The translations under genes and the position numbers were made by a program. From positions 2,491 through 66,490 of the forward strand of contig CAIMSU010000103.1 of the NCBI GenBank assembly GCA_903844155.1: a DNA stretch of 64,000 bases. The letters run 5' to 3'. Shown here piece after piece: positions 30,777 through 46,834 of this stretch. The stretch is from an uncultured Pseudomonadota bacterium. GTDB lineage: Bacteria; Myxococcota_A; UBA796; SXON01. Positions within the stretch are counted from its first letter, which is position 1. Each line of letters begins with the position of its first letter. Under the pieces are notes generated by a model that saw only the letters and a program-made list of their open reading frames with translations, was not told the DNA's origin and did no database searches.

Positions 30777-31466
30777 ATGCCCGTCCCCGTCGCCGCTCAC
30801 CCGCTCCTCGTCGCGCGTTTCCTTTCGGTCCAATTTCCGCGCCCTCTCGGGGACCTCGCCGACCCGCTCATCAGCGCCCTACTGGCCCTCGACAGCGCGG
30901 AGCTCGTCGCCGAATACGTCTCGATGTTCGACGGCGAACCGATCACCAGCGCCGTCGGTCCCTCCGGCGATCCGCTGCGGCTCGCGATCCGCGACCTCCT
31001 CCGACACGGAGGCTTCAAGCCCACCGGCCGCTCCAAGCCCGCCTCCGAGTACCTCCTCAAGGCCGCCGCCGACGGCTTCCTCAACCCCATCAACGCCGCA
31101 GTCGACGCCTGCAACGCCGTTTCGCTACACAGCGGCTTCCCGATCTCGGTCGTCGACCTCGACCGCACCTCCGGCCCGCTGCGCATCGCCGTCGCCCCCG
31201 ACCCGGCAGGAAGTGCCGTCGACTTCGTCTTCAACGCCTCCGGCCAGACCATCGACATCGACGGTCTGCTCTGCCTTTTCGACGATGACGGCCCCTGCGC
31301 GAACGCCGTCAAGGACGCGCAGCGCACGAAGACCACGAACGCGACGACGCGCACCCTCTCCGTGATCTGGGGCGTGCGCGGCCATGAACCGCGCCTCGAC
31401 CTGACCGCGAGGTGGTACGCCGCCCTCCTTCGTCAGCTCGGCGCGGAGGTGACGTGCGCCCCCTGA
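30777..31466 (+). CDS. Stand-alone PheT B3/B4 domain protein
   Basis: KPTGRSKPASEYL, INAAVDACNAVSL..G.PISV.D. Confidence 0.88.
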   Translation: MPVPVAAHPLLVARFLSVQFPRPLGDLADPLISALLALDSAELVAEYVSMFDGEPITSAVGPSGDPLRLAIRDLLRHGGFKPTGRSKPASEYLLKAAADGFLNPINAAVDACNAVSLHSGFPISVVDLDRTSGPLRIAVAPDPAGSAVDFVFNASGQTIDIDGLLCLFDDDGPCANAVKDAQRTKTTNATTRTLSVIWGVRGHEPRLDLTARWYAALLRQLGAEVTCAP

Positions 31467-32119
31467 CGCCACGGCTCGCGATGGTCGCCGACGAGGTTCG
31501 CCGATGTACCACTTCTGCAGAGAGCAATTGTGGTACATCGCCGCTCGTCGTCGACGTGGGGTGTGACCACGCGGGGCTCTCCCTCACGTTGCTCCACGAG
31601 GGGCTGCCTGCGCGGATCGTAGCAGTAGATTGCAACGCCGCGCCGTGCGCCCGAGCCCGCGCGAACGCCCTGGCCCTCGGCCTGCCGCTCGACGTCCGGC
31701 AGGGCGGGGGGCTCGATCCGGTCGAGGGATTCGTCGAGGTGGTCAGCATGTGCGGCGTCGGGTCGGGGACGGCGGTGGAGGTGCTGGAGGGGGCGCGGGA
31801 TCGCGTTGGCGCGGCGGTGGTGCAGCCCAACGACGATGGAGCGGGCGTGCGCGCTTGGGCCCGGGGCGCGGGGTGGCGGGTTGCGCGCCAGCGGGCGGTC
31901 TGGGATCGGGGGCGGTACTACGGGGCGCTGGTGCTGGCGCCGGGGGCCTACGATCTCGACTACGCCGAGCTCATGTGGGGAGTCGGAGCGCAGGTGGACC
32001 GGGAGGCGCTGGGGCGACGGCTGCGGGGTGAGATCGCGCGACTTGGCGCGTTTCCGGCGAAGGAAATGGAGCTGCGGTGGGCGAAAGAGGCGTTGCGGCG
32101 CCTGGGACTGCCAGGTTGA
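31454..32119 (+). CDS. trmK: tRNA (adenine22-N1)-methyltransferase-like protein
   Basis: LTPRL..VA, DVGCDHA.L, GGGLDP, CGVG, VQPN, RYY; GGAGG RBS before GTG 31454. Confidence 0.8.
   Translation: MRPLTPRLAMVADEVRRCTTSAESNCGTSPLVVDVGCDHAGLSLTLLHEGLPARIVAVDCNAAPCARARANALALGLPLDVRQGGGLDPVEGFVEVVSMCGVGSGTAVEVLEGARDRVGAAVVQPNDDGAGVRAWARGAGWRVARQRAVWDRGRYYGALVLAPGAYDLDYAELMWGVGAQVDREALGRRLRGEIARLGAFPAKEMELRWAKEALRRLGLPG
31502..31540 (+). repeat. Palindromic element copy 1, in frame inside trmK
   Basis: CGATGTACCAC-TTCTGCAGAGAGCAATT-GTGGTACATCG; 11-bp arms; exactly 13 codons (RCTTSAESNCGTS). Confidence 0.85.
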
Positions 32120-32146
32120 CCGGGCCGCGGACGGGCTGCGAGGGAG

Positions 32147-32183
32147 GATGTACCACAATTGCTCTCTGCAGTTGTGGTACATC
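32147..32183 (-). repeat. Palindromic element copy 2
   Basis: GATGTACCACAA-TTGCTCTCTGCAG-TTGTGGTACATC; reverse complement differs from copy 1 at 2 of 37 positions. Confidence 0.85.
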
Positions 32184-32228
32184 GGCCGCGGCCACGATGG
32201 CGCAGAAGATGCACGGGTCGCCGGTCAT
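32184..32228 (-). pseudogene. HIT-family N-terminal remnant
   Basis: MTGDPCIFCAIVAAA with ATGA coupling to the upstream gene; stops resembling HIT at the palindrome; no HxHxH motif. Confidence 0.55.
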
Positions 32229-32692
32229 GGTCCGAGCAGCTCGCGCAACCTCGCCGCCCCAACACCTCGCAATTCTTCGGATTTCTTGCCCGTCAACTTC
32301 GCCAGCACCTTCACCGGGTCCGCCTCCTCCTGCTTGAGCGCGCGGTAGGCCTTCTCGTTCAGGTCCAGCGCCGCAAACCGCTCTTTCACCAGCTCCCAGG
32401 CCTTCTTCTCGCGCTCGCCCAAAAACTGCTCCTTGAGCTTGAGCAGCGCCGCGGCCTCCCGCGTCCGCCCCGCCGCCTTCAACTCCTTGCACCGCACGTC
32501 CGACCGCGACGTGAGCTGGCCGATCGAGGCCTCCTTCGGGATCTCGACGCGTTGGGCTCGCAATTCCGCGATCCACGCGCTGCTTAGCGGATCCGGCAGC
32601 AATGCGGTGGCGACGGGCGGATCCGCGGGCTTCGGGGCTGGCAGTCCCTTGTCGGCGAGCGCGCCGAGGAGGGCGTTTTTGAGGTCGGACAT
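32225..32692 (-). CDS. Hypothetical helical protein
   Basis: MSDLKNALL...; Lys/Glu-rich with typical codon usage. Confidence 0.75.
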   Translation of the reverse strand: MSDLKNALLGALADKGLPAPKPADPPVATALLPDPLSSAWIAELRAQRVEIPKEASIGQLTSRSDVRCKELKAAGRTREAAALLKLKEQFLGEREKKAWELVKERFAALDLNEKAYRALKQEEADPVKVLAKLTGKKSEELRGVGAARLRELLGP

Positions 32693-32728
32693 GGGCGGCT
32701 GGTAACCGACGCGTGGTACCCTCAGCGG

Positions 32729-33192
32729 ATGGTGACGGCGCTGCTCCTCCTCGCTGCATTTCCGAGCGCGGAGGCTGAGACGCCGGACTCCCGCGACCCC
32801 TTCGTCGCGCCGCAACCCGGCGAACTCTCGGGGTGCACCCTGGTCGGCACCGCGTGGAGCGACGGATCCCGGGCGGCCCGAAACCCGTGATCGACACCGA
32901 CGGCCCCGGCTGGCTCCCCGGCTATCCGCTCCAGAGCGACACGCTCGTCGGCACCGAGCTCGGCGGGAGCGCGCCCGCCGCGCTGATCATCGACCCCTCC
33001 GGGACCGCGCATACCCTGCGCCTCGGCGCGTACATCGGTCAGAACTGGGGCACCGTTACGGCGATCGGTCCGGAGAGCATCACCGTCACCGAGGAATACC
33101 AGGCCATCGACGGCGTCCTCGTCGTCAACCCGATCGTGATCCCGCTGGGCCGGGCCGCCCCTCCGGTTGCGCCCGCGCCGCCTTCCCGTTAG
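32729..33192 (+). pseudogene. pilP: PilP-like type IV pilus protein, split or frameshifted
   Basis: Signal and RDPF in 32729-32890; YPL...LVGT...ALIIDPSG...GAYIGQNWG in another frame from 32887. Confidence 0.6.
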
Positions 33193-33320
33193 CCCCCGCG
33201 GCCGCCCATCCTGGGCGACCCGCGCCGGCCCGCGATGCCCATCCTGGGCTTCCAAGGTACCCCCGACGCGGATCTCTTGAGCCTCGCAAGGGCTCGTTTC
33301 GCACCCAAGGAGCCATACAC

Positions 33321-33938
33321 ATGGCACGTTATCGTGGACCGCGGCTGAAGAAATGCCGTCAGGTGGGCGTGGTGCTTCCCGGACTCACCAATGCTGGCTC
33401 GCTCAAGCGCGCCAACCCTCCGGGACAGCACGGCGCTCGTCGCAAGTCAAAATCGTCGGACTTCAAGGAGCGCCAGACCGAGAAGCAGAAGCTGCGCCTG
33501 CACTTCGGCGTGCTCGAGAAGCAGTTCCGCCGCTACGTCACCGAGGCCAGCCGGCGCAAGGGCCCGACCGGGCGCATCCTCATCACGCTGCTCGAGTCCC
33601 GGCTCGACAACATCGTGTGGCGCCTTGGCCTCGCCGAGACCATCCCCGGCGCGCGCCAGCTCGTCGTGCACGGGCACATCACCTGTGACGACGTGCGTAC
33701 CGACCGCCCCAGCTTCCACGTGAAGCCCGGCATCGTCGTTGCGATCCACCCGAAGTCGCGCGAGAAGCCCTTCATCCAGGCCAAGCTTGAGCACGCGAAC
33801 AGCCGCGTTCGCCCCGGCTTCCTCGAGTTCGACCCGGCCAAGGCCGCGGGCAAGCTCGTCGTCCAGCCGGAGCGCGAAGACCTGCCGTTCGAGTGCGATC
33901 CCCAGAAGATCGTCGAGTTCTACTCGCAGCAGATCTGA
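33321..33938 (+). CDS. rpsD: 30S ribosomal protein S4
   Basis: MARYRGPRLK, PPGQHG, EKQKLR, LESRLDN, ARQLVVHGH, IVEFYS. Confidence 0.97.
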   Translation: MARYRGPRLKKCRQVGVVLPGLTNAGSLKRANPPGQHGARRKSKSSDFKERQTEKQKLRLHFGVLEKQFRRYVTEASRRKGPTGRILITLLESRLDNIVWRLGLAETIPGARQLVVHGHITCDDVRTDRPSFHVKPGIVVAIHPKSREKPFIQAKLEHANSRVRPGFLEFDPAKAAGKLVVQPEREDLPFECDPQKIVEFYSQQI

Positions 33939-33975
33939 CCCTCAGCCGTCCTGCGGGCGGTCTGGCCTCGGCCGG

Positions 33976-34419
33976 TCAGCCTCGCGGGATTCGTGGGTAC
34001 TCGCCTGCGACCGGAGCCGTCCACGCGTTCGCGCGCTGGGCGGCTTCTGCATTCGGAAGGTCCGCGGCGGCATAAAATGCGTCCGCCTCGGCCAGCAACC
34101 CGGCGACGTCAACCCCGTCCCGCGGGCTCGCGCAGGCGACGAGCTTTTCGTGCGCCTTCTCCCATTGTCCACGTGCGCCGCGGGGATTGCCGCGTCGCCA
34201 GTGCTCGAAGCTCACGGCGAGCTGGATGAGGCCCTGCACAAAGCGGCGATCGCCGCCAGTGCGTTCACGGCCCTCCGCGGGCGCTCCCGCGAGCGCGTGC
34301 CAGAGCGACTCCCAGACCTCGTGGGCCTCAAAAAACTCGCCGGCGTCAAAATGCGCGCGGGCGGCCTGAAAACGGGGGTCCGCCGAGGGAAACGGTGGAG
34401 GTGGTCCGTGGTCCTTCAT
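33976..34419 (-). CDS. DUF309 family protein
   Basis: FDAGEFFEAHEVWESLW, QGLIQLAV..H..RGN..GA. Confidence 0.9.
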   Translation of the reverse strand: MKDHGPPPPFPSADPRFQAARAHFDAGEFFEAHEVWESLWHALAGAPAEGRERTGGDRRFVQGLIQLAVSFEHWRRGNPRGARGQWEKAHEKLVACASPRDGVDVAGLLAEADAFYAAADLPNAEAAQRANAWTAPVAGEYPRIPRG

Positions 34420-35498
34420 GCGGTTGAACCGGCACTTTGGGCGACCCGCGCCACGTCCGGGCGACGGTCGGCGCGCCAGGGGGCGGGATCCTCGCCGAGC
34501 GCGATGAGGACGCCCAACGCGTGCGCAGCGGCAACGTCCGGGGCGGTCGCCACGGCGTCGCGCAGGGCGGGAATGGCGACGGCGCCGTACTTCCAGAGGG
34601 CGTCCATGGCCGCGAGGTAGAACCCGCCGAACGCCGAGCCGGTGGTGTTTCCGAGGTAGGAGACGAGGGTTGGGACGGCCGCGAGGTCGCCAAGCTCGCC
34701 AAGCGCCCAGATCAGGTTCGTTCGAACCGGGTACTGGATGCCCATGCCGGCGCCGGGGCGGCCCTCAAAGTCGAGCGCCTCGTCCTTCAGCGCGCGCAAA
34801 AGCACGGGTGTACCCTCCCGAAGCCCGATCCGGCCGATGGCGGTGGCGGCGAGGCGACGCTGCGTGAAGCCGCGGCCGGGGTCGACGTCCGTGGCGCGCA
34901 GCGCGTCGACGAGGAGGGGCAGGGCGCGGGGGTCAGCGGAGAGGCCCAGCGCGTTGAAGATGACGTGCTGTTCGCGGCGGCCGGCGACCGCGAGCGATGC
35001 GGCGAGCGCCCCGTAGTCGCGCTCAGGCTGGTCGAGGGCCAGGGCGAGGCGCTCGGGGAGCGGGGGAACGTCGAACGCGAGGCGGCGAGGGCCGCCGACG
35101 GTCGGGTAGGTCCGACGGTCGCGGGCGTCGAGGAGGGCGATGGCGACGGTGCGAGCGGCGATGGCGTCGGGTGAGCAACGGACGGTCGCGAGGGCGACGG
35201 CGAGGGCGTCCTCATCGCGACCGCGGGTGGAGCGGGCGCGGGAGAGCGCGGGCAGGGAGCGAGCGTCTCCACGTCGCCCGAGGGCGCGGGCGGCGGCTCG
35301 GGTCACGGCGGCACGGTCGTCGGCAAGCTGCGCTTCGATGAACTCCCGGGCTTGATCCTCGGGACGCACGGCGAGAGCGGACACGGCGAGGACGGCGAGG
35401 CGCTCAGTGCCGCGGCGGATGGCGCGCGCCAGCCCGAGGCCGTCAAGCTCGCCCAGCCCGCGGCCGGTCAGCAGGCGGTCGGCGAGCGGGATCGGCAT
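34416..35498 (-). CDS. HEAT-repeat protein
   Basis: Repeated AA.ALG..GD..A.P.L units. Confidence 0.8.
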   Translation of the reverse strand: MPIPLADRLLTGRGLGELDGLGLARAIRRGTERLAVLAVSALAVRPEDQAREFIEAQLADDRAAVTRAAARALGRRGDARSLPALSRARSTRGRDEDALAVALATVRCSPDAIAARTVAIALLDARDRRTYPTVGGPRRLAFDVPPLPERLALALDQPERDYGALAASLAVAGRREQHVIFNALGLSADPRALPLLVDALRATDVDPGRGFTQRRLAATAIGRIGLREGTPVLLRALKDEALDFEGRPGAGMGIQYPVRTNLIWALGELGDLAAVPTLVSYLGNTTGSAFGGFYLAAMDALWKYGAVAIPALRDAVATAPDVAAAHALGVLIALGEDPAPWRADRRPDVARVAQSAGSTA

Positions 35499-35548
35499 GG
35501 CGACAGCGTAGCGCGCGGGACCGGCCCGAACCGGCGCGCGTCAAACGA

Positions 35549-36622
<1,074 letters not shown>

Positions 36623-36729
36623 TGGGACGATCCGGTTCGGGCGCGCCGCTAACGCCGAAAATCCACTGCGCAAGTGGGGGGCGGCGAATTCGCTGGCAGG
36701 ACGGCCGGCGGGCGGTGTAGGCTGCTCCG

Positions 36730-37245
36730 ATGTGGCTGTTGATCGCGCTCGTGGGCTGTCTGGCGACCGGTGGAGGCTCGGCCGCAGACACCGCGACGTG
36801 CTCATACGCGGAAAACAGCGCAGAGTCGGACGACTGTTGCTGGCAGGACCGGGTGACGATGGCGTCGGTCCGCTTGATCGCCGACGCGGATGCACCATCG
36901 GCAGCCGGCGGCGCGCCCGAACTCACGACCATCACGACGCAGGCCGGGCTGGATGCCTGGTGGACGTCGACGGGGCTGACGCCGACGGGATCGATAGCCT
37001 TTGGCGGCGAGATCGGCGTGGGGTTCATCGGGCACGTCGAACCCGGCTGCCAGGACCGGCAATTGGTGGGGGTTCGGATCGGCGACGCCCCAGACACATG
37101 GTTCGCCGGGGTGCAACAGGACTCAACCTGCGAGGCGTACGACACGGCCACGTGCCCTGGACCCGGCACGCCGCATGCGACGCTCTACGCCGTGCCCCCC
37201 GGCGAGGTGTCGGAGTGCGACTTCGGGAGCTTCTGCGACGGGTGA
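36730..37245 (+). CDS. Cys-rich hypothetical lipoprotein
   Basis: LIALVGC lipobox; multiple Cys. Confidence 0.6.
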   Translation: MWLLIALVGCLATGGGSAADTATCSYAENSAESDDCCWQDRVTMASVRLIADADAPSAAGGAPELTTITTQAGLDAWWTSTGLTPTGSIAFGGEIGVGFIGHVEPGCQDRQLVGVRIGDAPDTWFAGVQQDSTCEAYDTATCPGPGTPHATLYAVPPGEVSECDFGSFCDG

Positions 37246-37270
37246 CGATGCCTGATACGGTGCTCCTCCG

Positions 37271-37299
37271 GCAATTCATATCAGCCTGATATGAATTGC
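37271..37299. repeat. AT-rich perfect palindrome
   Basis: GCAATTCATATCAG-c-CTGATATGAATTGC, 14-bp arms, between convergent genes. Confidence 0.8.
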
Positions 37300-37417
37300 G
37301 GGATGAGGATTGTCACGTCGGGAGCCGCGCGAGGGGGCAAAGGGGAGCGGGAGCGACCGCGCGGGATGCCGGATCGGAGAGGATGAGCCCAGAAAAAGCC
37401 TGGAAAACCCGCCCAGA

Positions 37418-37939
37418 TCACCGCTCGCAGCGGTCCTCGAACGCCCACGTGAACGTGAACGACCCTGAGCCGGTGCAGCCCCAATCGGCGACCGGTCGCG
37501 ACCATGAACCGTGTTTTTCGTCGGTGACGACGAGGTCCGCTGTGTTGGGGTACCCGCCACCGGGCAGCCGGCTGACGACCGCGCCCGACGCGTCCTCAAG
37601 CCCCGACTCGCCCGCATAATCGGCGTTCGGCGCGGATGGATCCCACGGCGGATGGAACGAGGCGTAACCGAAGATCCCAGCGACCTCGGCGGACCCGCAG
37701 GTTGTGACGATTGGGACGTCAAAGAGGATCTGTTCGTCGCCGTTGACGAGGATCGCGGCGTTGGACGGCCATGCTTGGTTGGCTTCGGCGCAGACGCTCG
37801 TGGCAACTTCGCCCTCCGCCTCCCCCGTGACCCCGTCGCCATCCCCCGTATTGATGGTGACGGTGACGGTGCCGCCGCCCCAGCCGAGGACCTCCGGCTT
37901 GCACGCGACGGGCCCACCAAAAACCAGCAGCAACGCCAT
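37418..37939 (-). CDS. Hypothetical lipoprotein
   Basis: MALLLVFGGPVAC; TGATG overlap with the dihydropyrimidinase stop. Confidence 0.6.
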   Translation of the reverse strand: MALLLVFGGPVACKPEVLGWGGGTVTVTINTGDGDGVTGEAEGEVATSVCAEANQAWPSNAAILVNGDEQILFDVPIVTTCGSAEVAGIFGYASFHPPWDPSAPNADYAGESGLEDASGAVVSRLPGGGYPNTADLVVTDEKHGSWSRPVADWGCTGSGSFTFTWAFEDRCER

Positions 37940-39351
37940 CACCTGAGCAGCTCGCCAACGCCAGCGCGCTTCACGAACTTGCCGCCGCCCGTCACCTCGG
38001 CCTTGCCGTTGTTGCAGACCACGCGCCCGCGCGAGAGCACGACCTCGCTCCAACCCTGCACCTCGAAGCCCTCATACGCGCTGTAGTCCACGCGCATGTG
38101 ATGCGTGAACGGGTTGTTGATCGAGATCGTCTCCTTGCGGTTCGGGTCGAACACGACGATGTCCGCGTCACTGCCGACGGCGACCGTGCCCTTCTTCGGG
38201 AAGAGGCCGAAGGTCTTGGCCGCAGACGTGCTCGTCAGTTCAACCCACCGGTTCAACGAGATCTTTCCGCCGACAACGCCGCCGTGGTGCATGAGCGAGA
38301 GCCGGTTCTCCACACCCGGGGCGCCGTTCGGGATCTTGGTGAACGACTCCCGACCAAGCTCCTTTTGTCCGTTGAAGCAGAACGGGCAATGGTCGGTGGC
38401 GACGGCGGAGAGGTCGCCGAACTTGAGCCCCTGCCAGAGCGAGGCCTGGTTCCACTTCTCGCGCAGCGCGGGCGTCATGACCCACTTTGCCCCTTCGAAG
38501 TTGGGACGATCGTAGATCGTCTGGTCGAGGAACAGGTACTGCGGGCAGGTCTCGGCTTGGACGTCGACCCCGCGCGACCGCCCGAGCTTGACCTGCTCCA
38601 GGGCGTCGTGGGACGAGAGATGCACAATGTAGAGCGGCACTTTCGCCACTTCCGCGATGGCGATCGCGCGATGCACCCCCTCGGCCTCCATGCGCGTTGG
38701 GCGGGTGAGCGCGTGCCAGCGCGGGTCCACCTTGCCGTCCGCGACCGCCTCGCGGATGATCTCGTCGATGACGATACCGTTCTCGGCGTGCATGCAGATG
38801 CGGGTGCCGTTCTCGCCGGCCTGCCGGAACGTGCGGTAGAGCGTGCCGTCATCGACGTAGAGCACGCCGGGGTAGGCCATGAAGAGCTTGTAGCTGGTGA
38901 TTCCGTCGTCGCGCAGCCGCTTGAGCTCGCCAAGTCGGTCGACCGCCATGTCGGTGACGATCATGTGGAAGCCGTAGTCGATCGTCGCTTTTCCCTCGGC
39001 CTTCTTGTGCCATGTGTCGAGCGCGTCGAGCGTTGAGCCGCCCTTGGCCTGGATGGCAAAGTCAATGATCGTCGTCGTGCCGCCGTGGGCCGCCGCAAGC
39101 GTGCCGCTGGCGAAATCGTCCGCCGACGTCGTCCCGCCGAAGGGCATGTCCATGTGCGTGTGCGGGTCGATGCCGCCAGGGATGACGTACTTGCCGGTCG
39201 CGTCGATGACGCGCGTGGCGCGCCCGGCGACGTCCAGAGAACCAGCGAGGTTCTTGCCGATGGCGGTGACCTGTTCGCCCTCGATGTAGACGTCCGCGTA
39301 GTAGTCGTCGGTCGCGGTGACGATGCGGCCATTCGTGATCAAGGTGGACAT
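37939..39351 (-). CDS. hydA: Dihydropyrimidinase (D-hydantoinase)
   Basis: PGGIDPHTH, GGTTTIIDF, SYKLFMAY, HAENG, TDHCPF, KIPNG.PG. Confidence 0.96.
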   Translation of the reverse strand: MSTLITNGRIVTATDDYYADVYIEGEQVTAIGKNLAGSLDVAGRATRVIDATGKYVIPGGIDPHTHMDMPFGGTTSADDFASGTLAAAHGGTTTIIDFAIQAKGGSTLDALDTWHKKAEGKATIDYGFHMIVTDMAVDRLGELKRLRDDGITSYKLFMAYPGVLYVDDGTLYRTFRQAGENGTRICMHAENGIVIDEIIREAVADGKVDPRWHALTRPTRMEAEGVHRAIAIAEVAKVPLYIVHLSSHDALEQVKLGRSRGVDVQAETCPQYLFLDQTIYDRPNFEGAKWVMTPALREKWNQASLWQGLKFGDLSAVATDHCPFCFNGQKELGRESFTKIPNGAPGVENRLSLMHHGGVVGGKISLNRWVELTSTSAAKTFGLFPKKGTVAVGSDADIVVFDPNRKETISINNPFTHHMRVDYSAYEGFEVQGWSEVVLSRGRVVCNNGKAEVTGGGKFVKRAGVGELLR

Positions 39352-39459
39352 CGCGGAGCTCCTGAAGGGCGTTGAGGGGAGAGGTTCTATCACGCATGCG
39401 GCCGACTACCGCCGTGGTCGCGCCCCAGCGTCTGCCGAAAGGTGTAGACTCCACAAGCG

Positions 39460-39921
39460 ATGATTCTGCCCGATCAACGAACGCTGCTGTTGCTGCTGGC
39501 CCTCCTTCTGGCGTTCTGGCTGCTCACCCGCGTCCACACGCGCGAGTCAGCGCCTCCGCCCCGCCGCACACCGGTGACGATCAACGAGCTCGGGCGGTGC
39601 GTTTTCGAGGTCGCCACTGGCCACGACTTTGTCGGTTACCGCGGGCTTTTCCTCGCTGGCGCCGAGGCGCGGACCGTGCTCGGGGACGCCGCCGAGGTCT
39701 ACCTCGACCGCAGGACCCGGGAGTTCCTGGAACGGGCGATGACCGCGTTGCAGGCGCTTATTCCCGCTGGCTCCCACTACGAGGGCATCGTCGTTGGCGA
39801 CGACGGCCAGGCCACGATCTAGGCACGCACGCCGGACGGGGCCCTGACGACGCTGCCTGTAGGCGGGGTGATCCAGGTCGGGGTCGTGTGGCGGCTGGTG
39901 GACCCGCCCGTGCTGCGCTGA
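39460..39921 (+). pseudogene. Membrane-anchored hypothetical protein with internal TAG at 39820-39822
   Basis: After the TAG the frame continues ARTPDGALTTLPVGGVIQVGVVWRLVDPPVLR* with coding-like codons. Confidence 0.55.
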
Positions 39922-39976
39922 CGGGCAGCACGGGCGATCGCGTTACGTCCGCGTCACCACCTGCTGGAGATCACCG

Positions 39977-40369
39977 ATGAATTGGCCCCTCGTTCTACGG
40001 CTTTCTGGCTTCGGGCTGTTCATGGCCCTGGCCACCGTCTTCATCATCCCATCGACCGTCGAGCCGATGGTGTGGCTGCCGATCCTCCTCACCGTCGCCG
40101 GCCTGATCGCGCGCTACGCGCCCGGGAAGTACTTCCTCCACGGTTTGGCGACGAGCGGCATGAATTGTGTTTGGATCACCAGCGCGCACTTCATCTTCTA
40201 CGACACCTACGCGGCCGGTCACGCCGATGAGATCGCCAGGTCCCAGGGCCTGCCCCTCTCGCCGCGCCTGATGATGCTGATCGTCGGGCCGATCGTTGGG
40301 CTGATCTCCGGCTGCATTCTCGGACTGTTCGCGTTCATCGCCAGTAAGCTCATCAAGCCTGCCGTGTAG
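39977..40369 (+). CDS. Small membrane protein
   Basis: About 4 TM segments; GGAG RBS. Confidence 0.8.
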   Translation: MNWPLVLRLSGFGLFMALATVFIIPSTVEPMVWLPILLTVAGLIARYAPGKYFLHGLATSGMNCVWITSAHFIFYDTYAAGHADEIARSQGLPLSPRLMMLIVGPIVGLISGCILGLFAFIASKLIKPAV

Positions 40370-40381
40370 GCCGGGAGCGTC

Positions 40382-40693
40382 GTGCCCTCCAAGCGAGCCG
40401 TCATGGTCGCCGCGCTGCTCGTTGTTCACACGGCGGTGAGCGTGCGCGCGCTGAGGGACCACGACTTCTTCTGGTTGTTCCGCTTCGCCGTGGCGGACTG
40501 GCCGCAGGGGCAGATCTTCTCCGACCTGACCTGCATGCGCCTCGTCGTGACGTCGTGGATGGTCGTCGACGCGCGCCGGTCCGGGCGAACGGTGTGGCCC
40601 TACCTCCTCGCCACGTTGCTGCTCGGCTCCTTCGGCCCTTTGACCTACCTTCTTGTCCGGGAGCTGCGTCCGACCCCGGCACCGGTCGGCTGA
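40382..40693 (+). CDS. DUF2834-like membrane protein
   Basis: DL...WMVVDARR.G...WPY..ATL.LGS.GPL.YL. Confidence 0.75.
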   Translation: MPSKRAVMVAALLVVHTAVSVRALRDHDFFWLFRFAVADWPQGQIFSDLTCMRLVVTSWMVVDARRSGRTVWPYLLATLLLGSFGPLTYLLVRELRPTPAPVG

Positions 40694-40748
40694 CGCTGGC
40701 CGAGTCCCGGGCCACCGGGCTAAGGCCTGCCGCTCCCCGAGGTTCCGA

Positions 40749-42257
40749 GTGTCGACCCAGATGCCCCCGTCCTTCCCCGCGCGATCCTACGAATTCACCC
40801 CCTACGTCGCCGCACAAAACTGGATTGGCGGCCAATGGATGGACGCCGCCAGCGGCGCCACGATTCCGGTGGAAAACCCGCGCCACGCGCGCGTGATGTC
40901 CCACGTCTCGATGTCCGGATCCGCGGACGTGGACCTGGCGGTCAAGGCCGCGCAGGCGGCATTCAAGACCTGGCGCAACGTGCCCATCAAGGAGCGCGCC
41001 GATGTCTTCTACAGGTTGAAGCAGCTCATGGAGCGCGATCTCGACGAGCTGGCCTGGCTCGCCTCGCACGAGAATGGCAAGACCTTCGCGGAGGCCAAGG
41101 CGAGCGTGCAAAAGGGCATCGAATGCGTGGAATTCGGCGCCTCGCTCCCGAACATCGCGGCGGGCGAGCAGTTGGACGTGAGCCGCGGCGTGAACTGCCG
41201 GATCGAGCACGAGCCGCTCGGCGTCGTCGCGGGCGTGACCCCGTTCAACTTCCCGATCATGGTCCCGCTCTGGATGTTGCCCCAGGCGCTCGTCGGCGGG
41301 AACACGTTTGTGCTCAAGCCCTCCGAGCAGGTGCCGCTCGGCGCGATGAAGCTCGCGGTTCTGCTGAAGGAAGCAGGACTTCCCGACGGCGTGCTCAACA
41401 TCGTGAACGGCGGCGTCGACGCGGTCAACGCGATCGGCGATCACCCCGACATCAAGGCGATCGCGTTTGTCGGCTCGACCAAGGTGGCGAAGCTGCTCTA
41501 CGCGCGCGGCGCGCAGACGGGCAAGAGCATGCTCTGCCTCGGCGGCGCCAAGAACCACCTCATCGTTGTCCCGGACGCAGACGTGGCGTTGACGGCGGCG
41601 AATGTCGTCGCCAGCTACACCGGTTGCGCGGGGCAGCGCTGCATGGCCGCGTCCGTCCTCCTCGCCGTCGGCGACGTCCACCACGTCATCGACGAAATCA
41701 TCGTCCAGTCGAAGAAGCTCCAGCTTGGAACGGAGATCGGCTCCATCATCAACGCCCCTTCCGTCGAGCGCATCAACGGCTACATCGACGACGCGGAAAA
41801 GCGTGGTGCGAAGGTGGTTGTCGACGGCCGCGGGAAGACCGGCGATGCTCCTGGGGACAAGGGCTACTGGGTCGGGCCGACGGTCATCGACGGCGTCTCT
41901 ACCGATATGCCTGCTGCGACCATTGAGATCTTCGGGCCGGTCCTCTCCATCGTCCACGTTCCGAACCTCGACGCCGCCATCGCCATCGAGAACGCGAACG
42001 CCTACGGAAACGCAGCGTGTATCTACACAACCTCTGGTGCTGTGGCCCGTTATGTGACTGAGCGCGTGGAGGCCGGGATGGTCGGCGTGAACGTTGGCGT
42101 GCCGGTGCCCCGCGAGCCCTTCGGATTCGGCGGGTGGAACGACTCGAAGTTCGGGAGCGGCAACATCACCGGCATGGACGGCTACCGCTTCTGGACGCGG
42201 CCCCGAAAAGTCACGACCAAGTGGCAATTGCAGGTCGACACCAACTGGATGAGCTGA
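40749..42257 (+). CDS. mmsA: CoA-acylating (methyl)malonate-semialdehyde dehydrogenase
   Basis: TPFNFP, KPSEQ, FVGST, GGAKNH, AGQRCMA, EIFGP; start is GTG 40749 or ATG 40761. Confidence 0.95.
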   Translation: MSTQMPPSFPARSYEFTPYVAAQNWIGGQWMDAASGATIPVENPRHARVMSHVSMSGSADVDLAVKAAQAAFKTWRNVPIKERADVFYRLKQLMERDLDELAWLASHENGKTFAEAKASVQKGIECVEFGASLPNIAAGEQLDVSRGVNCRIEHEPLGVVAGVTPFNFPIMVPLWMLPQALVGGNTFVLKPSEQVPLGAMKLAVLLKEAGLPDGVLNIVNGGVDAVNAIGDHPDIKAIAFVGSTKVAKLLYARGAQTGKSMLCLGGAKNHLIVVPDADVALTAANVVASYTGCAGQRCMAASVLLAVGDVHHVIDEIIVQSKKLQLGTEIGSIINAPSVERINGYIDDAEKRGAKVVVDGRGKTGDAPGDKGYWVGPTVIDGVSTDMPAATIEIFGPVLSIVHVPNLDAAIAIENANAYGNAACIYTTSGAVARYVTERVEAGMVGVNVGVPVPREPFGFGGWNDSKFGSGNITGMDGYRFWTRPRKVTTKWQLQVDTNWMS

Positions 42258-42260
42258 GGG

Positions 42261-43622
42261 ATGACGATGACTTCCCAAGAAATGATCGCGCTCTGCAAGA
42301 AGCACACGCTTTACACATGGGCCGCTCAGGATGCCGTCGACCCGCTCGCCATCGCGAGCGCGAAGGGCGTGTACCTCTACACCGTCGACGGGCAGCGGAT
42401 CCTCGACTTCAACAGCCAGCTCATGAGCGTGCTCATCGGCCATGGTCACCCTCGCGTCATCGCGGCGATGCAAAAGCAGATGGAGACCCTGATCTACTGC
42501 TACCCGCAGACCGCGACGGAGCCACGCGCAAAGCTTGGAAAGGTGCTGTCCGAGCTGCTCCCCGGGGACATCGACAGCTTCTTCTTCACGACCGGCGGCG
42601 CCGAGGCGAACGAGAACGCCATCAAGATCGCCCGGCAGTACACCGGCCGCTTCAAGATCCTGTCGCGCTACCGCAGCTACCATGGGGCGACGAACGCCAC
42701 GATGCAGCTCACCGGCGACCCGCGACGTTGGGCGAGCGAGCCCGGCGCCCCCGGGTTCGTGCGGGTGATGGACCCCGTTCCCCTCGAATTCTCCTTTGGG
42801 GCGACCGAGGAAGAGCAGACAAAGAACCACCTGATCTACCTCGAAGAGATGATCCAGTACGAGGGCCCGAACCAGATCGCGGCGTTCTTCATCGAGCCGG
42901 TGACGGGGACGAACGGGGTGCTGATCCCGCCGAAGGGCTGGCTTGCGGGGGTGCGGGCGCTCACGCGTAAGTACGGCATCCTGCTCGTCTGCGACGAAGT
43001 CATGGCGGGCTTTGGACGCACGGGGAAGTGGTTCAGCTTCGAGCACGGCGGCCTTGTCGGCGATCAAGCGCCCGACATCGTGACGATGGCGAAGGGCTTG
43101 ACGAGCTCCTACGTGCCGCTTGGCGCGATGGGCGTGAGCGCTGCGATCGCCGACTACATGCGCAGCCACGTGTTCTCTGGGGGGCTGACCTACAACTCGC
43201 ACCCGCTGGCGATGGCCTGCGCGGTGAGCGTGCTGGAGGTCATGAAGGACGAGAAGATGGTCGAGAACGCGGCGGCGATGGAGTCGGTCATGCGACGGGA
43301 GATGGACCGGCTGACCGCCCGGCACCAAAGCGTCAAGGAGGCCCGTGCCATCGGCCTCTTCGGCATGTTCGACCTTCGCAAGAACGGCACCGGCGGCCCT
43401 CCGCACGGCCGCCCCGGCGAGATGATCGCGCCCTACAACGGCGCGCACCCGGCGATGGGCAAGCTCGGTAAATTCTTTCGGGACGAAGGGCTCTTCACCT
43501 TCATGCGCTGGTCGAGCTTCTCCGCGATTCCGCCGCTTTCCATCACCGAGGAGCAGCTCTGCGAGGGCTTCGCGATCGTCGACCGCGGGCTCGACATCAC
43601 GGACGCGGTGTTCGAGGGGTGA
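42261..43622 (+). CDS. Class III aminotransferase (beta-alanine/taurine type)
   Basis: SYHG, IEPV, DEVMAGFGRTG, PDIVTMAKGLTS. Confidence 0.92.
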   Translation: MTMTSQEMIALCKKHTLYTWAAQDAVDPLAIASAKGVYLYTVDGQRILDFNSQLMSVLIGHGHPRVIAAMQKQMETLIYCYPQTATEPRAKLGKVLSELLPGDIDSFFFTTGGAEANENAIKIARQYTGRFKILSRYRSYHGATNATMQLTGDPRRWASEPGAPGFVRVMDPVPLEFSFGATEEEQTKNHLIYLEEMIQYEGPNQIAAFFIEPVTGTNGVLIPPKGWLAGVRALTRKYGILLVCDEVMAGFGRTGKWFSFEHGGLVGDQAPDIVTMAKGLTSSYVPLGAMGVSAAIADYMRSHVFSGGLTYNSHPLAMACAVSVLEVMKDEKMVENAAAMESVMRREMDRLTARHQSVKEARAIGLFGMFDLRKNGTGGPPHGRPGEMIAPYNGAHPAMGKLGKFFRDEGLFTFMRWSSFSAIPPLSITEEQLCEGFAIVDRGLDITDAVFEG

Positions 43623-44023
43623 CACCCCAACCGACCACAACTGCGGAGAGCAGAAGTGGTAGATCCGGCGACGCGCGGTTCGGCGGCATGCTGGCAGTCG
43701 GTATCGTCGCGGGCGCGCTCGGCGCGTGGGCTGGCTGGTTGGCGCGTGGAGAGCTTGGCCCTCCGCACGGCACCGAGCAGTACACGCTGACGGAGGCGGT
43801 GCCGCTGCGGTCCGACTCGAGGGTCGGGGTCCTGCCGGCGGGGACCACGATGTACTTTGACCGGGGCTTTGACGAGGGGTTCGGGCGGTGGGTGGTGTAC
43901 GTGAACGCGAATGAGCGACCGCCCACGGCGCGTGGCCCGGCTGACGCGATCGCCCCGCTCTGGGCTGACCTGAGCGGCGACGATCCGCCTCCCGTGTGTG
44001 TCCTGGCCGGAGCGACGCGCTGA
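43619..44023 (+). CDS. Membrane-anchored hypothetical protein
   Basis: GTGA overlap; TM segment; LPAGTTMYFDRGFDEGF; alternative start ATG 43688. Confidence 0.65.
   Translation: MTPQPTTTAESRSGRSGDARFGGMLAVGIVAGALGAWAGWLARGELGPPHGTEQYTLTEAVPLRSDSRVGVLPAGTTMYFDRGFDEGFGRWVVYVNANERPPTARGPADAIAPLWADLSGDDPPPVCVLAGATR
43634..43665 (+). repeat. Palindromic element copy 3 (degenerate)
   Basis: ACCACAACTGCGGAGAGCAGAAGTGGTAGATC; 27/32 identical to the reverse complement of copy 2. Confidence 0.75.
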
Positions 44024-44180
44024 CGGCGAGGGGTTTGAGCGGCGTCCCACAGCGGGTCGTGGATCGGCGCGGGGCCAGGCGAGCCGCCCCAAGGCGCCCG
44101 AAGCCCCCGCGCCCGGCGTGAACGGGTTGCCACCGGCCGCGAACCCGCGTACCCTGCAGCCAACCGAAGCAGGTGCCACG

Positions 44181-46085
44181 ATGATCGCTCTCTTCCTCGC
44201 CGCCGTCCAACTGGCCCGCGCGGGCGCTGCGGCCGATTTCCTGCCCGGTGTCGAGGGGCAGACCGGCTTCGGGCCCCCGGTCGTGGACGCCAGCGGCACG
44301 GAGGTCGCGTTGACGCGCTGGGACCGCGCGGGATTGTGGGCCTGGGACCAGAATGGGGCGCCAGCGCCCGTCAGCCTCTCGCGCGGGGCGGGCTTCCACC
44401 CGGTCTTTTCGGGGACTGATCTGCTTTACAAGGCCGTGACCAGCGGTGTCCAGCAGGCCCTGCTCTCGCGACGTGACGGCGGGCGCTGGGTGAATTCCTT
44501 GCTCGACGAAGGCCCCCACGTCGGCCAGCCCGCGATCCTCGCGGGCCGGATCGCCTGGCCCGGGCCAGACGCGCTTGGCGTCCGGTCCCCCGCCTCCCGC
44601 CGCGCCTACGCAGACCTCGATGGCATCGACATCATCGCCCCGGACGCCGGCGGGGAGCGGCTTGCCTGGGATGACGACGCCGGGCTGCTTCACGTTCGCG
44701 ACGTGGCTACGGGCCTGACCCGGACATTCCCCGACGCCGGGGCGGGGGCCTACCCTGCCTGGAGCAGCGATGGCGCGCTCGTGCTCCACCACGACGGCGA
44801 CACCGTCACCATCGTGAGCCCGGCCGACGGCAGGTTCGTCACGGTTGATGGCCGGGATCCGGCCTGGGTGCCCGGGACACACCAGATCGTCTACGCCGCG
44901 CTGGTGACCGGGAACGAGGTCGGCGACGAAAACACCGCCGGCATCGGCCCCTACGAGGTGGAGTCGTCCACGCTCTGGTCGTACGACGTCGCTACCGGCA
45001 CCTCCACCGTGCTGCTCGACGACGCCGCCGTCCACGCTCGCTTCCCAGCGCCGATCGGCCGGTCGGGCGCGCTGCTGTTCGTCGACAGCCGCTCCGGCGA
45101 TCTCTACCGGCTCGATCACGCCGTCGCGACGCGGGTTCTTCCCTCGTCCGCCCTCGACTTCGCGCGGGACGCCCCACCGCCCCCGCCCTCGGACGCGCGC
45201 GTTGAAGTCTCCGTCCCCTACATGCACCAGCTCTGGGACACCCCCGACGACTTCAACGGCAACTGGTCGTGCGGGCCGACGTCCTGCCTGCAAACGCTTG
45301 CGGCGTTTTCCACGCTTCCAAACTCGGACATCACCTGCTCCTGGCCCAGCTCGCACACGAGCCACTGGGGATGGTATGTCCCGAACGTCTACTCGTTTGG
45401 GGGCTACACGTACGACACGTGGGGGCTCGCTGCCGGCGGCCAGTGCCAGGGCGCCCACGGGTTCATCTGCGAGCAGTACGGTGGCGCGGTGTGGTCGCAG
45501 ATGACGGCCTTCATGCAACAACACGGCGTTGACTCGCAGGAAGTGGGGACGGACTACAACAGCGTGGTCTCCGAGACGAACGCGGGGTATCCGATGTACG
45601 CATCGGTCTACGTCCTTGGCTACGGGCATATTTTCGTGATTCGCGGCTATATTTCGCAGGACGGCAGCCCGATCCACACCGTGGTGGTGAACGACCCCTA
45701 CGGCAACGCAGGGACCGGGAGCTGGGGCAACGACGACGGCGAAGACATCGTGTACGACTGGCCCGGGTACAACAACGGGAATCTGGCGTTTGACCTCTCC
45801 GAATTGTTCACGGCGCACGGCGTGTACCCCTCCAGCGGCGGCGGAGACACCGGCACGCCGCCCGCGGACACGGGCACCCCGCCCGTCGACACCGCGCCGG
45901 CCTCGGACACCGCGCCGGTCACAGACAGCGACACCGCCGGGACCGCGGACTCCGGCGGCATTTCGCGGCCCGGGACCGAGACGAAGGTCGACGGGATCGG
46001 CTGCCAGACGGCACCTTCGTTCCTCGACGGCTCCGTCGGCACGCTGCTTCTCGCCCTGGGCCTGGTCCGACGGCGGCAGCGCTGA
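44181..46085 (+). CDS. Secreted TolB-like propeller plus C39-like peptidase with MYXO-CTERM-like tail
   Basis: Signal peptide; PAWS repeats; VPYMHQ...SCGPTS...GHI..IRGY...VNDP; DT linker; GCQTAP...LLLALGLVRRR. Confidence 0.85.
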   Translation: MIALFLAAVQLARAGAAADFLPGVEGQTGFGPPVVDASGTEVALTRWDRAGLWAWDQNGAPAPVSLSRGAGFHPVFSGTDLLYKAVTSGVQQALLSRRDGGRWVNSLLDEGPHVGQPAILAGRIAWPGPDALGVRSPASRRAYADLDGIDIIAPDAGGERLAWDDDAGLLHVRDVATGLTRTFPDAGAGAYPAWSSDGALVLHHDGDTVTIVSPADGRFVTVDGRDPAWVPGTHQIVYAALVTGNEVGDENTAGIGPYEVESSTLWSYDVATGTSTVLLDDAAVHARFPAPIGRSGALLFVDSRSGDLYRLDHAVATRVLPSSALDFARDAPPPPPSDARVEVSVPYMHQLWDTPDDFNGNWSCGPTSCLQTLAAFSTLPNSDITCSWPSSHTSHWGWYVPNVYSFGGYTYDTWGLAAGGQCQGAHGFICEQYGGAVWSQMTAFMQQHGVDSQEVGTDYNSVVSETNAGYPMYASVYVLGYGHIFVIRGYISQDGSPIHTVVVNDPYGNAGTGSWGNDDGEDIVYDWPGYNNGNLAFDLSELFTAHGVYPSSGGGDTGTPPADTGTPPVDTAPASDTAPVTDSDTAGTADSGGISRPGTETKVDGIGCQTAPSFLDGSVGTLLLALGLVRRRQR

Positions 46086-46177
46086 CGCGGCACCGACCCG
46101 GGCCGAGGACGGAGTCCCGCGCTGACCAACGGTTACAAGCCCAACCCCCGCCCGGCGCGGTACGCTCGGAGGCTGCG

Positions 46178-46834
46178 ATGTCATTGCGATCTTCACTCTC
46201 TCGCCTCCTGCGCGTTGTCGCCCTTCCGCTCGCCGTGTCGGCCTGCGCCGCGACGCCTGGCCCAGGCGAAGGTGCCGCGGTGAAGCCCGACGCGGCGGAC
46301 CCGCTCGCAGGGCCGCAGGCCGCGGTGCTCACGTCCCACGACGGCGCCGCGACCGTTCGGTCGACGATGCCGTCCGTTCCCCAATCGGGGCAGCCAGCTC
46401 CGGCGCTGCACCTCAAGAACGTGGAGGGCGGTGACTTTTCGCTCAGCGCGCTCGCGGACCCGACGGGCGAGTCCTCCCCGAAAGGGGTGCTCGTGGCGTT
46501 CATGGCGTCGTGGTGCCAGTACTGCTCCAACAGCCTGCCGACGCTCGTGGCGATCGAAAAGGCAAACCCGGATCTGGAGGTCGTGGCGGTGACCGTCGAC
46601 GACCGTCCGGACATGCAGACGGCCGAGCTTGCGAAGGTGCGGAAAGCCGGGCTGACGGGCCCGGTGCTCGTGGCGGACCAGGACGCGATCAGGGACTGGG
46701 TTGGCGGCGGAAAGTCGGTTCCAAAGTACTTCTTCGTCAACCACAACGGGCTGATCGTGGCGCACGACGATGGGTTTGGCGGCAAGGTCGAGCCGCTGAT
46801 GCCGAAGCAGGCCGCGCGCGCGCTCGAGGACTGA
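46178..46834 (+). CDS. TlpA-family thioredoxin lipoprotein
   Basis: VSAC lipobox, ASWCQYC, VP.YF. Confidence 0.88.
   Translation: MSLRSSLSRLLRVVALPLAVSACAATPGPGEGAAVKPDAADPLAGPQAAVLTSHDGAATVRSTMPSVPQSGQPAPALHLKNVEGGDFSLSALADPTGESSPKGVLVAFMASWCQYCSNSLPTLVAIEKANPDLEVVAVTVDDRPDMQTAELAKVRKAGLTGPVLVADQDAIRDWVGGGKSVPKYFFVNHNGLIVAHDDGFGGKVEPLMPKQAARALED

Follow-up and report, generated by a model that had tools for sequence, protein, structure and literature searches.

Species-specific hairpin repeats of the REP type in an uncultured bacterium, and a RAYT-like gene flanked by two of them

Results

The palindromes of the window and the trmK gene that contains one of them

The stretch analyzed (hereafter, the window) is 64,000 nucleotides (nt) of contig CAIMSU010000103.1 (C103), which belongs to the 8.13-Mb draft genome of an uncultured bacterium (assembly GCA_903844155.1; 375 contigs, 68.7% GC, estimated contamination 5%). 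It contains three copies of a palindrome resembling the REP (repetitive extragenic palindromic) repeats of other bacteria: one within a trmK-like gene, one between this gene and its convergent neighbor, and one between an aminotransferase gene and an orphan open reading frame (ORF). The coordinates of these features, and of the genes similar to those of REP-associated tyrosine transposases (RAYT) found elsewhere in the genome, are collected in Table 1.

Table 1. Positions of the REP-like copies, their neighboring genes and the RAYT-like genes (window numbering, or contig:positions)
Feature	Position	Strand	Remarks
REP copy 1	31502..31540	+	13 codons within trmK, residues 17-29, RCTTSAESNCGTS
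REP copy 2	32147..32183	-	Intergenic, between the stops of convergent genes
REP copy 3	43630..43666	+	Flanked by the aminotransferase stop and the orphan ORF's first ATG
trmK-like tRNA methyltransferase gene	31454..32119	+	GTG start preceded by GGAGG; contains copy 1
Convergent ORF	32225..32815	-	From the coding-score profile; its stop at 32225 bounds the spacer of copy 2
Class-III aminotransferase gene	42261..43622	+	Pfam Aminotran_3 282 bits; NCBIfam PRK06062 484 bits
Orphan ORF	43688..44023	+	Hydrophobic N-terminus; alternative GTG 43619 takes copy 3 in frame
RAYT-like gene	C113:46393-47178		261-amino-acid (aa) ORF bracketed by two family copies
Upstream flanking REP	C113:46309-46345	+	47 nt 5′ of the ATG
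Downstream flanking REP	C113:47179-47215	-	Immediately 3′ of the stop
Further RAYT-like paralog	C268:23801-24592		Pfam Y1_Tnp 30.3 bits
Further RAYT-like paralog	C113:28371-29150
Further RAYT-like paralog	C182:8268-9035
Further RAYT-like paralog	C259:18121-18909		No flanking repeat shown

The initial annotation, made from the letters of the window, had listed these three copies under a 37-nt consensus, and all three proved to be real. The consensus matched copy 1 (31503-31539, +) and copy 2 (32147-32183, -) with 0 mismatches, and found no match in 100 dinucleotide shuffles of the window. Copy 3 (about 43630-43666, +), the left arm of which has diverged, was overlooked by a search allowing 3 mismatches and caught by a profile search (nhmmer E = 6e-10 in the first round and 4.9e-07 in round 2). 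When folded as single-stranded DNA, copies 1, 2 and 3 gave the hairpins with 5-nt loops that had been described, with energies of -13.1, -14.3 and -9.5 kcal/mol (z = -5.9, -7.6 and -4.4), respectively, and none of 200 shuffles folded equally well. The AT-rich character attributed to the element was also borne out, since the GC content of 52 full-length copies was 48.7% versus the 68.7% of the genome.

Copy 2 is the nearest relative of copy 1, and vice versa (36/40 positions identical), and one variant is exclusive to this pair (2/61 copies). These affinities suggest that the two copies arose by local copying or conversion. They face inward around the body of trmK, in a geometry that matches that of the copies placed around the RAYT-like gene described below.

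The trmK product, translated most likely from GTG 31454, scored 69 bits with the Pfam model TrmK and 80 bits with Methyltransf_18. Six orthologs conserve the N-terminal helix LTPRLAMVADEV, which is encoded 5′ of the repeat and in the frame of the downstream catalytic core; the copy occupies exactly 13 codons of the gene (31502-31540), as had been stated. In the structural model (mean predicted local distance difference test, pLDDT, 89.5), the only low-confidence stretch corresponds to the 13 residues encoded by the repeat, with values <50 at residues 24-26. The trmK gene of genome G003 (locus 2090-2178) has in the same loop a long, unrelated insert of its own (+12 residues), which gave only chance-level matches when searched for as a repeat in the G003 genome.

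Size, forms and variants of the repeat family

The genome-wide search that had been proposed for further copies was run with an nhmmer profile made from seven copies, which went through one round of iteration. It returned 70 non-overlapping matches over the draft genome, which are taken as the family. An 18-nt core pattern (≤1 mismatch) gave 61 genome matches, versus 0 for the reversed control. The copies occur in two forms, either as single hairpins or as tail-to-tail inverted doublets of about 80 base pairs (bp) with a center gap of 0-5 nt, 10 of which are complete and internal to contigs. The two arms of a doublet are more alike (35.3/40 identical positions) than arms of different doublets (27.4/40), and private variants are common to both arms of a doublet. 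In addition, 23 of the 750 contig ends stop inside a doublet, every one of them continuing into the second arm, so the assembly is interrupted by the repeat, and the true number of copies exceeds the assembled one.

Two diagnostic positions divide the 70 copies into a uniform variant (33 copies, the most abundant, mostly in doublets), a more self-complementary one (16), 16 mixed copies and 5 unclear ones. The three copies of the window all belong to the more self-complementary variant. The ends of the repeat read ..CTACCAC and GTGGTAC/GTGGTAG.. within the stem, and the outer stem is GTAC or CTAC. The Rfam covariance models, run over positions 31000-44500 of the window with E ≤ 1, gave no match at the copies and a sole match elsewhere (36964-37021).

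Concerning the distribution of the family, the core pattern had 0 matches in four genomes of the same genus (79-94% complete) and, among 26 relatives that are more distant, appeared in two, with one occurrence in each. Set against the 61 core matches of this genome, the four same-genus zeros agree with the lineage-specific, REP-like repeat that had been presumed. An exact, degenerate 27-nt pattern retrieved 0 records from a species collection where the genome of the window itself may be absent. The sequencing data consisted of four runs from one study, a lake water metagenome. Contigs from three of the runs span the trmK copy with 0 differences; one of these runs is not a likely source of the assembly, the copy being present in a third sample.

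A RAYT-like gene bracketed by two copies

It had been remarked that the window holds no transposase, and this is correct; the RAYT-like gene lies on another contig, C113. A Pfam Y1_Tnp search of the genome pointed to two places, one of them C113:46399-46722, within the ORF of Table 1. The search suggested earlier for a RAYT or IS200-type tnpA flanked by copies thus had a positive outcome, with this gene located between two inverted copies of the family. Both flanking copies turn the same end to the gene, as the arms of doublets do, which makes the doublet the same layout without the gene.

The HUH and tyrosine residues (H49, H51 and Y109, also I110) were invariant in 8 aligned homologs, the C113 protein reading YIHANP around the tyrosine. 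The NCBIfam model REP_Tyr_transpos was matched by 7/8 homologs (best E 4.4e-10). The AlphaFold2 model of the C113 protein (pLDDT 85) displays a helical C-terminal extension (helices 182-258), and its first-ranked Foldseek match was 4er8_A (E 1.2e-4, 153/165 columns aligned, template modeling score 0.64 on the target), i.e., the REP-associated tyrosine transposase of E. coli in complex with a REP hairpin. The transposases of ISDra2, IS200 and IS608 were the next structural matches. An HTH_23 domain was weakly matched in the C113 protein (E = 0.096) and was found in 4/8 homologs (best E 2e-4). The profile of the 8 homologs, run against the sequences of the Protein Data Bank (PDB), gave weak ISDra2 matches only (E 0.0096), 4ER8 not being among them, and a related-locus search with the C113 protein as the single query found no relative. 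The genome contains no near-identical duplicate of the gene, and no tnpB was seen beside it, no search aimed at tnpB having been made.

Counting this one, the genome encodes five RAYT-like paralogs, which are 35-49% identical. Three of the four further paralogs carry at their flanks inverted hairpin repeats of their own, of different and unrelated families, the best flanking 16-mers occurring 54/35, 11/13 and 23/23 times in the genome. In a tree with 25 metagenomic homologs (the best 55% identical), the five paralogs did not form one clade (5 changes forced). A recent radiation within the genome was rejected on this lack of clustering, and the paralogs are hence lineages that are old or were separately acquired.

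Copies read in frame within conserved genes

The coding status of the copies was judged by a codon-usage score trained on 1,175 long ORFs with high GC at third codon positions and profiled along the flanks, and 44 copies, located ≥150 nt from a contig end, were assessable. Five of them lie in frame within conserved genes and 39 are without a supported reading frame, the count of five being a minimum as the score is crude. This census of intragenic copies, which had been asked for, shows that the family is mainly extragenic. The description of the window copies as elements inside coding sequences is only partly right: it holds for copy 1 in trmK, copy 2 is intergenic, and copy 3 is located 5′ of the first ATG in the orphan ORF, though it would be inside this ORF with the alternative start at GTG 43619.

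The five hosts, each checked against orthologs, are trmK and the genes of an Lhr-type helicase, a DTW-domain protein, a ketosynthase-like protein and a TatD-type hydrolase. The copies in them are all single hairpins, occur in three reading frames and in both orientations, and fall in variable loops or linkers. In the helicase, the copy is placed between motifs II and III and is accompanied by 14 extra aa relative to an 82%-identical ortholog and 19 relative to 3 others; no target-site duplication was visible at this site in the comparison with the 82%-identical ortholog. The DTW protein is 24 aa longer there than 5/5 orthologs. The ketosynthase-like protein has the copy in a variable inter-domain linker. 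In the TatD-type hydrolase, the Pfam domain spans the copy, with about 18 extra aa relative to 4/5 orthologs. So, the earlier proposal that the element adds peptide insertions extends from trmK to four further genes. In the TatD protein of genome G001, the loop that has the REP in this genome is filled by a long, unrelated insert of its own.

Three other in-frame candidates were rejected by eye, namely C65:51503, C166:50787 and the copy at C113:46309, upstream of the RAYT-like start, their spanning ORFs being Arg/Gly-rich nonsense or preceding the start. It was also considered whether stop-free frames could be a sign of selection, as at least 5/6 frames are open in 49/52 full-length copies versus about 11% of shuffles. 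This was discarded, because all copies descend from one sequence and thus amount to a single observation.

Surroundings of copies 2 and 3, and other repeats of the genome

Copy 2 lies within a 105-nt spacer that runs from the trmK stop (32119) to the convergent stop (32225), and no coding signal was detected across 32050-32230. The order of trmK and the convergent gene is kept in 3/3 same-genus loci, where the gene ends abut or overlap.

The aminotransferase stop (43622) is 8 nt 5′ of copy 3. This copy has the orientation of copy 1 and, as had been pointed out, reads TTTAESRSGRS in the frame of the ORF 43619-44023. The coding score of the orphan ORF is positive only from about 43670; no homologs were found in 10 related genomes, and Pfam and NCBIfam gave no match. 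Depending on which start is used, copy 3 would be 5′ of this ORF (ATG 43688) or within it (GTG 43619). The ORF located 3′ of it (43998-46085, +) has a Peptidase_C39_2 domain (34 bits). The antisense ORF 40401-46196, of 1931 aa, is regarded as a probable artefact of the high GC content.

A different repeat (core GCGGGTTTTC) was matched 83 times in the genome, 11 of the matches lying within 120 nt of a copy of the REP family and sometimes in tandem with it (e.g., C54:350-400, C256:48230-48320 and C108:47215-47235). This repeat gives the impression of a distinct family whose landing sites are in part those of the REPs. The commonest 16-mers of the genome do not come from the REP family; they include a short tandem motif of the GACACC type (77 occurrences) and a palindromic word of the CCGCCGATCCCGGCGC type (64), and the existence of further repeat families is likely.

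Discussion

A REP family with a RAYT-like gene

The inverted copies that bracket the C113 gene, together with a protein fold that is nearest to 4ER8, point to a family of the REP/REPIN type with a RAYT-like gene. In all probability, the palindromes are a species-specific REP family that spreads as hairpins and REPIN-like doublets and is tied to the HUH/Y1 gene of C113. The link between enzyme and hairpins is inferred from the arrangement of the locus and the modeled fold. By analogy with the E. coli TnpA_REP and the transposases of the insertion sequences (IS) IS200/IS605, the C113 enzyme would bind, cut and move the hairpins: it would recognize the hairpin on single-stranded DNA, cut beside it, and then move or copy the repeat. 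Most copies would settle in intergenic spacers, and an intragenic copy would be kept only if it preserves the reading frame, brings in no stop and has landed in a loop or linker that tolerates it. As in TrmK, its translation would then yield 13 to 24 disordered residues.

Several observations weigh against this interpretation. The scores of the C113 protein are below the cut-offs of both family models, with 20.5-22.6 bits for Pfam Y1_Tnp (cut-off 23) and 36 bits for NCBIfam REP_Tyr_transpos (cut-off 80), and phmmer with this protein against the PDB sequences gave 0 matches at E ≤ 1. The copies that flank the gene belong to a less abundant variant, and the assembly has no transposase gene flanked by the most abundant and uniform one (33/70). 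No exact insertion borders or cleavage motif could be defined. The contigs of the sequencing runs display neither insertion polymorphism nor a REP-less joint at trmK, but contigs cannot show rare variants, and these data are thus uninformative on mobility. Finally, the palindrome-free trmK orthologs of the same genus have loops of 18, 21 and 34 residues, versus 22 here, of unrelated sequence. It had been proposed that the insertion would be disproved by orthologs sharing length and sequence of the loop without the palindrome. The lengths are indeed similar or greater and the sequences are unrelated, which goes part of the way to that refutation for trmK; copy 1 thus occupies a loop that is hypervariable in any case, rather than adding 13 codons cleanly.

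Other explanations of the repeats

The repeats could be conceived as a MITE (a miniature transposable element with inverted repeats), i.e., an internally deleted IS of the DDE type, whose terminal inverted repeats would be the hairpins and whose transposase, acting in trans, would be unassembled or lost. The doublets would then be two inverted arms joined head-on, the 23 contig ends inside doublets could hide longer copies in assembly gaps, and it would be no surprise that the abundant variant flanks no transposase gene. However, the sequence at all 23 contig ends goes on into a doublet's second arm and at none into new sequence, the only gene bracketed by the repeats encodes a Y1/HUH protein, every arm forms a hairpin of its own, which is a requirement of Y1 enzymes, and the helicase site is without visible target-site duplication. 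A MITE is thus considered very improbable. The chance that there is no true family but a coincidence or an assembly artefact, as a draft of 375 contigs with an estimated contamination of 5% might make one fear, is negligible in view of the shuffles (0/100), the reversed control (0 versus 61) and the bridging of the trmK copy, with 0 differences, by contigs of three runs.

The initial annotation had also admitted a protein-binding site. The copies could be the operators of a regulon, or terminators or mRNA stabilizers recruited by the host, with no mobility of their own. The sequence is palindromic, and many copies immediately follow a gene end or separate convergent genes, positions for which, in other bacteria, an action of REPs on RNA is presumed in the account of Di Nocera (2013, PMC3733652). 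Nevertheless, a set of 70 copies that includes 80-bp doublets and also five unrelated genes, hit at non-homologous positions, hardly fits an operator or structural site; moreover, the copies are missing from the orthologous sites of relatives, with none in the four same-genus genomes, and Rfam gave no match at E ≤ 1. The operator proposal therefore found no support, and this whole group of explanations is regarded as very unlikely, although some copies may have a secondary function for the host.

Comparison with known systems

The REP family with its RAYT-like gene, as proposed here, has well-described counterparts, as REPs, REPINs and RAYTs are amply treated by Bertels et al. (2017, PMC5581495). 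As in the REPtrons presented there (E. coli yafM/rayT, Pseudomonas REPINs), the palindromes are imperfect, measure about 37 nt and number tens of mostly extragenic copies, and there are inverted doublets and a Y1/HUH gene between two inverted copies, with no near-identical gene duplicates and with a fold nearest to 4ER8. Unlike in REPtrons, the protein is longer (261 aa), has the helical C-terminal extension and scores below the NCBIfam RAYT cut-off, and the doublet spacers are of only 0-5 nt. The 5′ GTAG tag of classical REPs is not evident, the outer stem being GTAC or CTAC.

By description, the C113 protein also resembles TIRYT, the proteins of the TIRtrons defined by Di Nocera (2013, PMC3733652), which Quentin et al. 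(2018, PMC6006769) equate with TnpA_REP subclass 2.1 and with group 1 of Bertels. The likeness comprises a long Y1 protein, the Y---NP motif (the class-2 tyrosine signature defined by Quentin et al.) and a weak, HTH_23-like C-terminal region, as well as several divergent paralogs per genome with flanking inverted repeats of their own. One Stenotrophomonas TIRYT is presented by Di Nocera with self-complementary repeats arranged as dimers. For subclass 2.1 genes, the description of Quentin et al. has no REP-like hairpins alongside, and for group 1 that of Bertels et al. has only about 12 copies of the flanking 16-mers. Unlike in these published accounts, the flanks are here true hairpins of a 70-copy family. 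As the class likeness is by description, this difference from subclass 2.1 is offered as a lead only.

Palindromes translated in frame inside conserved genes bring to mind the Rickettsia palindromic elements (RPE) and intragenic REPs. As with these, many of the hosts are nucleic-acid enzymes, here TrmK, DTW, Lhr and TatD. The RPE-1 elements are longer than the present repeat and, to our knowledge, have no known transposase. The repeat studied here differs from RPE in that a cognate RAYT-like gene is present. Intragenic REPs as such have already been published (Di Nocera 2013, PMC3733652). With IS200/IS605 elements and their non-autonomous palindrome-associated transposable elements (PATEs), the system has in common the HUH/Y1 chemistry and the recognition of hairpins, in line with the structural matches to ISDra2, IS200 and IS608 TnpA. 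In contrast to IS200/IS605, there are no multiple identical transposase copies, and the same hairpin is present, inverted, at both ends, instead of different left and right subterminal hairpins.

Implications

A wider proposal can be put forward only tentatively, as it is rather doubtful: that the long, HTH-tailed RAYT relatives of this lineage are fully active REP mobilizers, with at least four of the five paralogs having a private hairpin family of about 10-70 copies, and that the copies favor loops of nucleic-acid enzymes (TrmK, DTW, Lhr and TatD). If this were true, the loop preference would hint either at a targeting of DNA frequently found in single-stranded form or at a selection for such peptide loops.

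Under the REP/RAYT interpretation, the palindromes would be fully explained and placed in a well-described class, and the genome would offer a clean natural case of several RAYT-like paralogs with a repeat family each, the enzymes being of the long type, whose association with repeats had been doubted. The five genes provide cases, dated by comparison, in which a 37-nt hairpin was absorbed into a conserved protein as a disordered loop, and they may be useful for studies of insertion tolerance. For annotators, they are also a warning that loops of this kind, in the trmK, Lhr, DTW, TatD and ketosynthase genes, stem from repeats.

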